Origin: Candidatus Woesearchaeota archaeon | Lineage (GTDB): Archaea; Nanobdellota; Nanobdellia; SCGC-AAA011-G17; JACPIM01 | Length of the DNA: 47,628 nt | Direction: 5' to 3' | Assembly (NCBI GenBank): GCA_016185635.1 | Contig: JACPNF010000010.1 | Span: 1-47,628 of the forward strand | Part shown: one piece after another, positions 27,833 to 30,930 of the stretch | How the letters are laid out: the number at the start of each line of letters is the position of its first letter | How positions within the stretch are numbered: position 1 is the stretch's first letter | Translations under genes and position numbers: made by a program | The notes under the pieces: model-generated | The model's input: the letters and a program-made list of their open reading frames with translations, nothing else | Databases searched by the model: none | What the model was told of the DNA's origin: nothing

Positions 27833-28522
27833 ATGGCAATACTATCTATTCTTGAGGAATTTCTCAAGGAAATTGAAAAGCATAATCCCTATAAACTTAT
27901 TATTAAAGGTGGAACAGCTTTATCTTTGTTTTACTTTAATCATCACAGAGAATCAGAAGACTTGGATTTTGACGCAGATATAAAATATCTGAAAGAACAT
28001 GCTAAGATAGAATCTTATTTTATTGATATCCTTGAAAAATTAAAAGAAAAAGGAATTATTAGAAAATTCTCAAAGGGTAAAAGTGGATTGGCAGCTACTA
28101 ATAGATATCATATGAAGATTCAATTGGAAACACATAAAATATTCTATACTAAAATAGATGTTGACTTTATCAAAATAAATGGAGAACTCAGAAACAAAGG
28201 TGAACTATTTTTATATCTACCTGAAAGATTATTTATTACAAAGATGATAACGTTCACAGACAGGAAGGAATTCAAGGATTTATATGATATATCCCATTTA
28301 ATTTCACGTATTTCTATTGATACATTTAAGAATAATCTTGAGGTTATTAGTTTGATAGATCAAGCAATAAATACAATCTTAAATGAAGATTTAAAAAAAT
28401 TGTTCAAGCAAGCTTTTAAAAATGTAGACTTAGGATTTAAAAATTTGAATGAAAGCCAAATAGATATGTTTAATTTAAAAATATTAAGAAATTTAAGAGT
28501 TTTAAAAAATAAATTAAGATAA
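27833..28522 (+). CDS. AbiEii/AbiGii-family nucleotidyltransferase toxin
   Basis: IIKGGTALSLFY...RESEDLDFD is the family's GGTAL...R.S.DLDF signature. C-terminal KDLYD. Confidence 0.7.
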   Translation: MAILSILEEFLKEIEKHNPYKLIIKGGTALSLFYFNHHRESEDLDFDADIKYLKEHAKIESYFIDILEKLKEKGIIRKFSKGKSGLAATNRYHMKIQLETHKIFYTKIDVDFIKINGELRNKGELFLYLPERLFITKMITFTDRKEFKDLYDISHLISRISIDTFKNNLEVISLIDQAINTILNEDLKKLFKQAFKNVDLGFKNLNESQIDMFNLKILRNLRVLKNKLR

Positions 28523-28530
28523 TTTTATAA
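28523..28530 (+). promoter_or_regulatory. candidate TATA element for the tRNA gene
   Basis: ttttataa about 28-35 nt upstream of tRNA position 1. The AT-rich background makes this weak. Confidence 0.25.
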
Positions 28531-28557
28531 ACTAATTTAAGACTTTATTTCTAATAT

Positions 28558-28683
28558 GGGCTCGTAGCTTAGCCTGGTTGGAGCACAAAAGTCAAAAGTT
28601 TGCTCTTTCGACTGATAACTAAGTTAGATATCGAGATGGATTAATCACGATAAAGGTCGTCAGTTCAAATCTGATCGGGCCCA
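28558..28683 (+). tRNA. tRNA-Ile (anticodon GAT at 28614-28616), intron-containing; best model has three introns
   Basis: Acceptor GGGCTCG/CGGGCCC+A. D arm GCTT-AGCCTGGTTG-GAGC. Anticodon arm TTCGA-CTGATAA-TCGAG. Variable loop AGGTC. T arm GTCAG-TTCAAAT-CTGAT. Exons sum to 75 nt and 51 extra nt lie in three blocks. No encoded CCA. Confidence 0.7.
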
Positions 28684-28688
28684 TTTTT
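28684..28688 (+). terminator. oligo-T tract after the tRNA
   Basis: ttttt immediately after the discriminator base. Archaeal termination commonly uses oligo-T. Confidence 0.4.
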
Positions 28689-28749: not shown

Positions 28750-30930
28750 ATGACAGAATTAATTATTTGCGAAAAACCTTCTGCTGCATTGAAAATAGCT
28801 ACAGCTTTAACTAATACTAAAATAGAAGAAAAGCAAAATGGCAGGATAGTTTATTATAAAATAAAAATAGACAATAAAGATGTTTTAGTTGTACCTGCTG
28901 TTGGACATTTATATGCCTTAAAAGAAAAAAAAATAAAAGGCCTTTTATATCCGGCTTTTGATGTTGAATGGAAAGAAGCTCATTTAGTTTCTAAAAAGGC
29001 CAGGTTTACAAAAGATTATTTGGATACAATCAAGAGATTATGCAAAGATTGTAAAGACTTTATTATAGCAACAGATAAAGATTTAGAAGGGGAATTAATT
29101 GGATATAATATTATACGTTTTGCATGCAAGCAAAAAGATGCAAAAAGAATGGAATTTTCTACTTTAACAAAAGAAGATTTAATAAATAGCTATGAAAAAG
29201 CCAAAGAACATGTTGATTTTCTTTTGGCTTACTCTGGAGAGACTAGACATATTATGGATTGGATATGGGGGATTAATACTTCAAGGGCTTTAACATTAGC
29301 GATGAAAAAAGCAGGCAACTTTAAATTAATGTCTACAGGAAGAGTTCAAGGTCCTGCTTTAAACTTAATTGTAAAAAAAGAAAAAGAAATTCAGTTATTT
29401 AAGCCAACTCCATTTTGGAATGTAGATTTAATTTCAGATAAGTTTATAGCACAGCATGAAAAAGGGAATATATTTTATAAAAATGAAGCTGAAAATATTT
29501 TAAAGAATACAAAAGGAAAAAAAGCATTTGTTAAAAAAATTACCAAGAAAGAGTTTAGTGTTAGCCCCCCATTTCCATTTGACTTAACTTCTTTACAAGT
29601 TGAAGCATATAAAACACTAAGAATAAACCCAAAAGAAACTTTAAGCATTGCACAAGATTTGTATATAAATGGTTATATCAGTTATCCAAGAACCAGTTCG
29701 CAAAAACTTCCTCCGGCTTTAAATTATAAAAAGATAATTGAAAAATTAAAATCAAATAAAAATTATAAAAATATTTGTTCTGAACTATTAGGAAAAAAAG
29801 AACTTAAACCTTCAGAGGGTAAAAAATCAGATCCTGCCCACCCAGCATGCCACCCAACAGGAGAATATAATGAGGATTTAGAAGGAAAACAATTAAGAGT
29901 TTATGATTTAATTGTTAGGAGATTCTTAAGTGCATTTGGTGATTATGCAAAAAAACAAACAAATAGTATTGAGATAGATATTAATAAAGAGATTTTTTCA
30001 GTTTCAGGTACAATAACTTTGGAAAAAGGTTGGATAGATTATTATGGAAAATATGCAAAATCAAAAGATGTTGAACTTCCTAAATACAAAGAAGGAGATG
30101 AAATAAAGATTAAGGAAATTAAGATTGAAGACAAAGAAACACAGCCATCTAAGAGATATACACAAGCTTCAATAATAAAAGAACTTGATAAAAAATTCTT
30201 GGGAACTAAAGGGACCAGGGCACAAATTATAGATACTTTATACAAAAGAAGTTACATAAAAGATAATTCTATTCAAGCTACTGACTTAGGGATTAAGTTA
30301 ATTGATACTTTAGAAAAATATTCTGAACAAATTATTGATGAGAAGCTTACAAGACATTTTGAAAAAGAAATGGAACAAATTAGAGAAGGAAAAAAAGAAG
30401 AAAAAGATGTTTTAGATGAAGCTAAACAGAAATTAGTTAAAATCTTTAAAAAAATTGAGGATAATGAGGAAAAAATAGGAAAAAACCTTCTTGAGTCTTA
30501 CAGGATTACTCAGGAGGAAATGAATACTATTGGGGAATGCCCTAAGTGCAAGACTGGAAATTTAAAAATATTATTTTCAAGAAAAACAAAGAGCAAATTT
30601 GTAGGATGTTCATCTTATCCTAACTGCAAAAACATTTACAGCCTTCCAAGAAACGGGTTGATAAAAAAAATTGAAGAAAGATGCAAAGAATGCAATTTTT
30701 ACCAGGTTCTGGTCATCAGGGCTGGAAAAAGGCCGTGGAAATTATGTTTAACACCGAACTGCAAATCAAAAGAAGCGTGGGCGAAGCCTTTTTCAGAAAA
30801 AGCTTTACCAAAAAACGATGACAAAAGCCTTCAAGGAGAAGCTTTTGAAAAAAGCTTCAGCAAAAACGAAAAAGAAGAAAAAAGTAACGACTCTGATACT
30901 ACAAAGCATGCCCAAGATAAAGAAAAATAA
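28750..30930 (+). CDS. topA: type IA DNA topoisomerase (archaeal TopA/Topo III-like) with C-terminal zinc ribbons and a low-complexity tail
   Basis: Toprim: LIICEKPSAA and TDKDLEGE. Catalytic region ISYPRTSS. Zn ribbons CPKCKTG...CSSYPNC and CKECN...CLTPNC. Confidence 0.85.
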   Translation: MTELIICEKPSAALKIATALTNTKIEEKQNGRIVYYKIKIDNKDVLVVPAVGHLYALKEKKIKGLLYPAFDVEWKEAHLVSKKARFTKDYLDTIKRLCKDCKDFIIATDKDLEGELIGYNIIRFACKQKDAKRMEFSTLTKEDLINSYEKAKEHVDFLLAYSGETRHIMDWIWGINTSRALTLAMKKAGNFKLMSTGRVQGPALNLIVKKEKEIQLFKPTPFWNVDLISDKFIAQHEKGNIFYKNEAENILKNTKGKKAFVKKITKKEFSVSPPFPFDLTSLQVEAYKTLRINPKETLSIAQDLYINGYISYPRTSSQKLPPALNYKKIIEKLKSNKNYKNICSELLGKKELKPSEGKKSDPAHPACHPTGEYNEDLEGKQLRVYDLIVRRFLSAFGDYAKKQTNSIEIDINKEIFSVSGTITLEKGWIDYYGKYAKSKDVELPKYKEGDEIKIKEIKIEDKETQPSKRYTQASIIKELDKKFLGTKGTRAQIIDTLYKRSYIKDNSIQATDLGIKLIDTLEKYSEQIIDEKLTRHFEKEMEQIREGKKEEKDVLDEAKQKLVKIFKKIEDNEEKIGKNLLESYRITQEEMNTIGECPKCKTGNLKILFSRKTKSKFVGCSSYPNCKNIYSLPRNGLIKKIEERCKECNFYQVLVIRAGKRPWKLCLTPNCKSKEAWAKPFSEKALPKNDDKSLQGEAFEKSFSKNEKEEKSNDSDTTKHAQDKEK

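Follow-up and report, generated by a model that had tools for sequence, protein, structure and literature searches.

A tRNA-Ile(GAU) gene of a Woesearchaeota archaeon interrupted by three short introns of the bulge-helix-bulge type

Can a 126-nt stretch in which standard tools see no tRNA be a working tRNA-Ile gene, and where exactly would such a gene be interrupted? The question is raised by positions 28558-28683 (+ strand) of a 47,628-nt contig sequence from a Candidatus Woesearchaeota archaeon (assembly GCA_016185635.1, contig JACPNF010000010.1), the whole of which is referred to here as the window. An earlier note, made from the sequence alone, had proposed that a tRNA-Ile(GAU) gene is interrupted here by three short introns. 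This proposal is borne out by bulge-helix-bulge (BHB) motifs, by the tRNA that ARAGORN recognizes in the spliced product, by an anticodon arm and a variable loop in this product that are identical to those of intronless orthologues and by the presence of EndA and RtcB genes. We consider it highly probable that 28558-28683 is a functional, and apparently the only, tRNA-Ile(GAU) gene of this DPANN archaeon and that it is spliced by EndA and RtcB.

The sequence reads, as first described, as 126 nt from G1 at 28558 to the discriminator A at 28683, and the anticodon loop CTGATAA, the variable loop AGGTC and the T-loop TTCAAAT are all present. The two ends of the gene pair over 7 bp as the acceptor stem (GGGCTCG/CGGGCCC, including one U.G pair), whose 5' strand is followed by an intact D-arm and whose 3' strand is preceded by an intact T-arm (GTCAG-TTCAAAT-CTGAT). 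From 5' to 3' on the + strand, the pieces of the gene are GGGCTCGTAGCTTAGCCTGGTTGGAGCAC aaaagtcaaaagtttgctctt TCGACTGATA actaagttagat ATCGAG atggattaatcacgataa AGGTCGTCAGTTCAAATCTGATCGGGCCCA, and the features of the locus are as follows.

28524-28531, + strand: TATA-box-like TTTATAAA, 27-34 nt upstream of G1, a putative archaeal promoter
28558-28586, + strand: exon 1, 29 nt; GGGCTCG, U8 and A9, D-arm GCTT/AGCCTGGTTG/GAGC, A26 and C27
28587-28607, + strand: intron A, 21 nt, position 27/28, full hBHBh' motif
28608-28617, + strand: exon 2, 10 nt; anticodon stem U28-A31, then C32 U33 G34 A35 U36 A37
28618-28629, + strand: intron B, 12 nt, canonical position 37/38, effectively a bulge-helix-loop
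28630-28635, + strand: exon 3, a 6-nt micro-exon; A38 and U39-G43, the anticodon-stem 3' strand
28636-28653, + strand: intron C, 18 nt, position 43/44, HBh' motif
28654-28683, + strand: exon 4, 30 nt; variable loop AGGTC, T-arm GTCAG/TTCAAAT/CTGAT, CGGGCCC and A73
28684-28688, + strand: TTTTT run directly after the discriminator, a probable archaeal oligo-T terminator

Exon 4 is identical or near-identical in relatives and does not end in an encoded CCA. A TTTATAAAT box is found at a similar upstream distance in the orthologues of two related genomes (G040 and G058). Since all four exons are collinear within the 126 nt, a split or permuted tRNA gene is ruled out. Group I introns are self-splicing elements of some hundreds of nucleotides with a catalytic core; they too are ruled out, the inserts being 12-21 nt long and the window containing no Rfam intron match. 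As to the neighbours, the gene directly upstream (window 27833-28522) encodes an AbiEii-type nucleotidyltransferase toxin (PF08843, 2.7e-20), and topA lies directly downstream (window 28750-30930), its closest relatives being from Candidatus Woesearchaeota MAGs.

ARAGORN reported no tRNA in the window by default and none on the contig of the gene when introns were allowed, and Rfam at its gathering threshold gave no match in a search of the whole window. When the local stretch alone was searched, the Rfam tRNA model matched exactly 28558-28683 and scored 35.8 bits, the gathering score being 29. Because of this match, the misses by ARAGORN and by the whole-window Rfam search are false negatives and not evidence of absence. 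The Rfam alignment places the anticodon arm on an internal CAAAAGUCAAAAGUUUG hairpin, with a 52-nt insert remaining; this placement was dropped for the BHB solution described below.

BHB motifs were enumerated as all places where two 3-nt bulges surround a 4-bp helix, and this bulge(3)-helix(4)-bulge(3) arrangement was found at each of the three junctions, where the earlier note had advised that it be modelled. The three motifs are distinguished by their flanking helices. Intron A has a central helix (H) of four Watson-Crick pairs (28581-84 GAGC with 28602-05 GCTC), bulges ACA (28585-87) and TTT (28606-08), a 6-bp outer helix (h; 28575-80 with 28609-14) and a 3-bp inner helix (h'; 28588-90 AAA with 28599-601 TTT); the GAGC(A)/(T)GCTC helix in it is the pairing between exon and insert that had been noticed from the sequence. 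For intron B, H consists of three Watson-Crick pairs and a G.U pair (28612-15 CTGA with 28624-27 TTAG) between bulges TAA (28616-18) and ATA (28628-30), h is the anticodon stem (6 bp) and h' is a single pair, C28619-G28623. Intron C has an H of four Watson-Crick pairs (28630-33 ATCG with 28648-51 CGAT), bulges AGA (28634-36) and AAA (28652-54) and an h' of 3 bp (28637-39 TGG with 28645-47 TCA), its h comprising at most 1 bp. Introns B and C thus have relaxed motifs, the former nearly devoid of h' and the latter nearly devoid of h.

Iterative removal of the BHB inserts leaves a 75-mer that ARAGORN calls tRNA-Ile(gat) and that contains ...GAGCACUCGACUGAUAAUCGAGAGGUCG... as the predicted spliced product. 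A strict search through all non-overlapping chains of BHB motifs, with a full cloverleaf required of the product, has exactly one solution, this same molecule. A motif-free spliced alignment by dynamic programming to the intronless orthologue L009 returned the identical three inserts, base for base. The intron boundaries are therefore confirmed by three independent approaches (BHB search, chain and cloverleaf enumeration, and motif-free alignment) that give one answer. The block sizes of 21, 12 and 18 nt in the original description were recovered by the BHB search and the alignment, which also agree with its placement of intron B (28618-28629, 37/38) and intron C (28636-28653, 43/44). Its 21-nt block near the junction of D-arm and anticodon stem was correct in kind but one base off, being 28587-28607 (27/28) and not 28586-28606 (26/27); accordingly, its assembly of a 75-nt cloverleaf from four exons holds for the size and for the Ile(gat) identity of the product, but not for the boundary of exons 1 and 2. 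The anticodon stem is not TTCGA/TCGAG, as had been read, but CTCGA/TCGAG, with a Watson-Crick C27-G43 pair, exon 1 ending at C28586 and exon 2 beginning at T28608, and it is this register that the perfect BHB and the intronless orthologues fit.

At a fixed pair of boundaries, a 4-bp central helix with at least three Watson-Crick pairs can be formed at about 1.7% of positions taken at random from the genome; the chance of finding all three central helices together is therefore about 5e-6. A relaxed chain and cloverleaf census of the 1.02-Mb genome gave 21 matches, against one on the reversed genome, and the tRNA-Ile(GAU) gene scored 20.8 in it, compared with a maximum of 15.0 in the reversed control. 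With BHB introns at 27/28, 37/38 and 43/44, the gene belongs to the multiple-intron tRNA genes, which are defined by at least two BHB introns and at least one non-canonical position. Three marks of BHB tRNA introns were found in the sequences, namely the motifs at the junctions, a restored canonical cloverleaf whose anticodon arm and variable loop equal those of uninterrupted homologues, and genes for EndA and RtcB. A genome search for paralogues of introns A, B and C found none elsewhere in the genome.

To compare the gene with its relatives, its 3' exon was searched for in 200 genomes of the order and the interrupted genes were then solved. The intronless tRNA-Ile(GAU) genes of the order (e.g., L009, L020 and L025) read ...AGCACTCGACTGATAATCGAGAGGTCGT..., and the spliced product matches this sequence without a difference, starting where the D-stem ends and continuing over the anticodon arm and the variable loop. 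Four other genomes of the family have a tRNA-Ile(GAU) gene with one or two introns immediately upstream of topA, the arrangement also seen here, and for this reason these genes are regarded as orthologues. The central helices in G025, G106 and G040 contain one mismatch; these genes were left unsolved by the strict BHB criteria and were resolved by motif-free alignment. The intron positions are as follows.

This genome: introns at 27/28, 37/38 and 43/44
G040, same family: intron at 27/28
G106, same family: introns at 27/28 and in the variable loop
G058, same family: introns in the D-loop and the variable loop (45/46)
G014, same family: intron in the D-loop
G025, another family: introns at 27/28, 37/38 and 43/44 (19, 15 and 19 nt)
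Other genomes of the order: introns at 30/31 and 37/38, at about 29/30 only, or at 37/38 only

Position 37/38 is occupied in G025, G078, G126/G162 and G185 as well. At 27/28, the genes of G106, G040 and G025 hold unrelated sequences in which the h' hairpin is kept, the pairings across genomes being AAA/TTT, GG/CC, TAGAC/GTCTA and TGGG/CCCA. Likewise, the intron sequences of G025 are unrelated to those of the gene studied here, and the central helices are shared while h' differs yet remains paired; its 19-nt intron at 43/44, for instance, has the same H but an h' of GTAAT/ATTAC in place of the TGG/TCA of intron C. Conserved exons, free intron sequence and kept pairing form the pattern that spliced BHB introns should leave, and one not to be expected of a pseudogene or of an expanded tRNA. 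Judged from these sequences, intron positions turn over rapidly among close relatives.

The genome as a whole (1.02 Mb, 30.9% G+C, 98.8% complete) yields only 12 Rfam tRNA matches. The census recovered 21 tRNA genes, which is about half of the expected set, so that its intron statistics are lower bounds: three genes are uninterrupted, 10 have one intron, five have two and three have three. Among the two-intron calls, one has a score of 14.2, which is lower than the 15.0 reached in the reversed control, and a stricter census with narrower anchors returned 15 genes. Because 18 of the 21 recovered genes are interrupted, the tRNA-Ile(GAU) gene is typical of a heavily interrupted genome and family and not a one-off. 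The shortage is seen across family f1, to which this genome belongs: the genomes at least 92% complete (G000, G014, G040, G058, G071 and G083) have 11-17 Rfam tRNA matches, compared with 22-41 in genomes at least 90% complete of most other families of the order; a few family f22 genomes are also low, with 10-18.

Several other tRNA loci of this genome (G000) are worth recording. The census lists a further three-intron candidate for Ser(GCU) (C29:7961-8139) and another at C56:11999-12143, the latter with anticodon TTT, a 17-nt variable region and a doubtful identity. A tRNA gene with a GGC anticodon (C1:9080-9176) is interrupted by a 22-nt intron in the T-arm, immediately ahead of the T-loop. 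A locus that ARAGORN calls 'Ile gat' on contig 17 (10940-11060) appears, when read by eye (ACGGC-CTTTCGC-GCCGT), to be a Glu(UUC) gene with a D-loop intron, and was rejected. On the same contig, a tRNA-Ile(UAU) gene with two introns (C17:13638-13803, minus strand) has its 3' exon in common with the GAU gene. A perfect 96-bp direct repeat, made up of the final 29 nt of this tRNA-Ile(UAU) gene and the 67 nt downstream of it, recurs about 880 bp away (C17:12756-12785), and the two copies bracket a 136-aa PIN-like open reading frame and an 87-aa open reading frame; the region C17:12690-13803 resembles a small toxin-antitoxin cassette that has inserted at a tRNA 3' end. A dispersed repeat with the palindromic core CTTTT(1-9 nt)AAAAG has 206 copies in the genome, eight of which fall within 3.4 kb of tRNA gene intervals, approximately 12-fold above expectation. 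The copies in tRNA genes form intron hairpins (e.g., C17:11016-11030, C56:12078-12092 and C86:8985-8999). This core is absent from the three Ile(GAU) introns; the orthologues of G058 and G014 have similar palindromes in their D-loop introns.

Other readings of the locus were weighed against this background. The same three-intron gene might have intron A in another register, either 28586-28606, which creates a U27.G43 wobble, or 28588-28606, a 19-nt intron that leaves a 77-nt product. The latter also has a 4-bp helix (AGCA/TGCT, with an h of 7 and an h' of 2), and its 77-mer is still Ile(gat) according to ARAGORN, but this molecule carries two extra nucleotides between the D-stem and the anticodon stem, while the register 28586-28606, with one mismatch in its poor central helix (GGAG opposite TGCT), is absent from the BHB enumeration. 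All intronless orthologues read GCACTCGA, which is reproduced by 28587-28607 only; because of this orthologue sequence, the other registers are excluded as extremely improbable, the register 28587-28607 predicting GAGCACUCGACU in the mature tRNA. It is also very unlikely that the locus is a decaying pseudogene, in which insertions have built up in a former tRNA-Ile gene and both expression and splicing have ceased, even though such a remnant would agree with the failure of ARAGORN, with or without introns, and of the whole-window Rfam search at the gathering threshold. By a count from the alignment, the exons differ from those of the G040 orthologue at 3 of 75 positions, whereas the inserts are unrelated, and each insert sits in a BHB. 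The adjacency to topA is conserved, a promoter-like box and a T-run are present, and most other tRNA genes of the genome look alike. In addition, no second gene with a GAU anticodon was found in the 98.8%-complete genome, for which the census covers about half of the expected tRNA set.

Least credible of all is a tRNA-Leu(CAA)-like or dual-anticodon gene whose alternative splicing gives Leu(CAA) or Ile(GAU). Here, the anticodon arm would be the hairpin CAAAA-GUCAAAA-GUUUG (28586-28602) and the remainder a giant insert in the variable region. The Rfam tRNA model does align its anticodon arm to this hairpin, and BHB-like motifs at 28604-28639 and 28605-28656 would lead to products that ARAGORN calls Leu(caa). 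These motifs are weak, however (h+h'=3), the hairpin contains G32 and an A.G mismatch, and the product would be a 74-nt class I molecule lacking the long variable arm of Leu tRNAs. Moreover, no CAA arm is present in the 27/28 introns of G025, G106 and G040, whose loops are quite unlike this one, and the 28586-28602 hairpin is fully explained as h' and loop of intron A.

We thus return to the tRNA-Ile(GAU) gene with introns at 27/28, 37/38 and 43/44, the splicing of which we infer from the BHB motifs, from a product that shares its anticodon arm and variable loop with intronless orthologues and from the presence of EndA and RtcB genes. A precursor of 126 nt plus would be transcribed, and EndA would excise the introns of 21, 12 and 18 nt at these three positions, cutting each bulge between its second and third nucleotides. 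This is the canonical geometry at 37/38, and applying the rule to the gene reproduces the orthologue sequence. RtcB would then join the exons of 29, 10, 6 and 30 nt to a 75-nt class I tRNA, to which CCA would be added after joining. As to the order of events, the outer helix of intron A (28609-14) overlaps nucleotides of the anticodon stem and central helix of B, and the central helix of intron C (28630-33) overlaps the anticodon-stem 3' strand (28631-35), which is the outer helix of B; therefore, the three motifs cannot coexist, while those of A and C are mutually compatible. In the minimum-energy fold predicted for the primary transcript, the helices of A and C are both formed, and in the fold predicted after removal of these two introns, the anticodon stem is extended by the helix of B with a 3' bulge. 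These thermodynamic predictions suggest that introns A and C may be removed first and B last. A point against the reading is that the unmodified 75-mer is not predicted to adopt the cloverleaf as its minimum-free-energy fold.

Genes for both enzymes were found elsewhere in the genome.

L036:1210-1788 (G000 C66): EndA, with a lysine-rich N-terminal extension
G000 C19:2541-6728 (L037, L038): RtcB, its Pfam match spread over a 946-aa open frame

EndA is encoded by one gene (192 aa; PF01974 and PF02778, with 100.8 bits for PF01974; contig 66) and matches the Nanoarchaeum equitans alpha subunit (2.7e-37) and Methanocaldococcus jannaschii EndA (3.7e-32). Among PDB entries, the protein is matched best by the N. 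equitans alpha subunit, which is part of an (alpha-beta)2 enzyme. A paralogue was found in the genome neither by Pfam search nor by unfiltered phmmer (--max), and no clear insertion is seen in the region that aligns with the M. jannaschii enzyme. Homotetrameric (alpha4-type) EndAs are built from one kind of alpha subunit, about 170-190 aa long, and lack both a beta paralogue and a tandem repeat; the short alpha-type class is classically described as strict in its substrate, which, given the relaxed motifs of introns B and C, counts against the main reading. The gene divergently adjoins one for an RNase Z-like metallo-beta-lactamase (L036:269-1159). For RtcB (PF01139, contig 19), the Pfam match comes in pieces (profile positions 1-29, 28-210 and 183-426) separated by gaps of about 1.3-1.5 kb, which is the size of inteins.

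Among known systems, the multiple-intron tRNAs of the Thermoproteales (Pyrobaculum, Thermofilum and Caldivirga) come closest: in the work of Sugahara et al. (2007/2008), as given in PMC4033280 and PMC4090602, the maximum reported is three introns, collinear genes contain several short BHB introns, non-canonical positions are used beside 37/38, motifs are relaxed (hBH and HBh') and many genes are affected. These hosts, however, are hyperthermophilic crenarchaea with an (alpha-beta)2 EndA that has the crenarchaeal loop, whereas here the genome is that of an AT-rich DPANN archaeon of about 1 Mb in which a single short alpha-type subunit was found; furthermore, their introns often recur between genes, in contrast to the three introns without genome paralogues studied here. 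The three-intron tRNA-Ile(GAU) gene is thus an extreme but known kind of gene, three being the published maximum for the Thermoproteales. The first description had placed three introns at the upper end, which agrees with the maximum in the older literature (PMC4033280) but less well with a genome that has two more three-intron candidates.

Within the DPANN superphylum, ARMAN-1 and ARMAN-2 have non-canonical introns and an epsilon2 EndA (PMC3239211). The study of Hirata et al. 2018 (PMC5829648) covers a DPANN set including a Woesearchaeota genome, associates alpha4-type EndAs with more tRNA disruption and describes incomplete DPANN tRNA sets that point to undiscovered disrupted genes. Non-canonical and multiple introns and tRNA sets that standard tools cannot complete are common to these reports and to the genome studied here. 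The tRNA-Ile(GAU) gene and its family, on the other hand, are not described in the accessible text of PMC5829648, and relative to the DPANN reports, an exact exon and intron map, an orthologue series with 0-3 introns and a family-wide tRNA shortage are laid out here. In some Asgard families, a 2026 preprint (10.64898/2026.10.13.758758) reports 2.2 inserts per tRNA gene on average, and the picture is similar in that most tRNA genes are interrupted, BHB sites are used, annotators miss many genes and gains are repeated; the lineage is a different one, and the terms 'DPANN' and 'Woesearchae' are absent from the preprint text. The tRNA-Ile(UAU) of Cyanidioschyzon merolae (PMC9602550, PMC3728597) also has three short ectopic introns that are removed by a protein endonuclease, but it is a eukaryotic nuclear gene served by a different enzyme complex.

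The points of more interest are the family-wide intron load, the single short EndA and the rapid turnover of intron positions. It is conceivable, although we regard it as rather doubtful when its three parts are taken together, that one Woesearchaeales family is in a state in which nearly all tRNA genes have one to three or more BHB introns, a single short alpha-type EndA without a partner cuts all of them, including the bulge-helix-loop and HBh' motifs that enzymes of its class are said to leave uncut, and some introns are seeded by a mobile palindrome-cored repeat. One short alpha-type EndA together with many relaxed, non-canonical introns would make a good test of how subunit architecture relates to substrate range, and mutually exclusive BHBs around a 6-nt middle exon would offer a simple model for ordered splicing. 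Across the order, orthologues have 0-3 introns at few sites, and those of the family that are syntenic and adjacent to topA have 1-3, which makes the orthologue series a compact natural set for studying the gain, loss and sliding of BHB introns. For the organism itself, this gene is the only one found for a tRNA that serves AUU/AUC codons in a very AT-rich genome, and it is missed by ARAGORN and by the default Rfam pipeline; statements on MAG completeness and codon capacity would thus be wrong unless multi-intron tRNAs are searched for.
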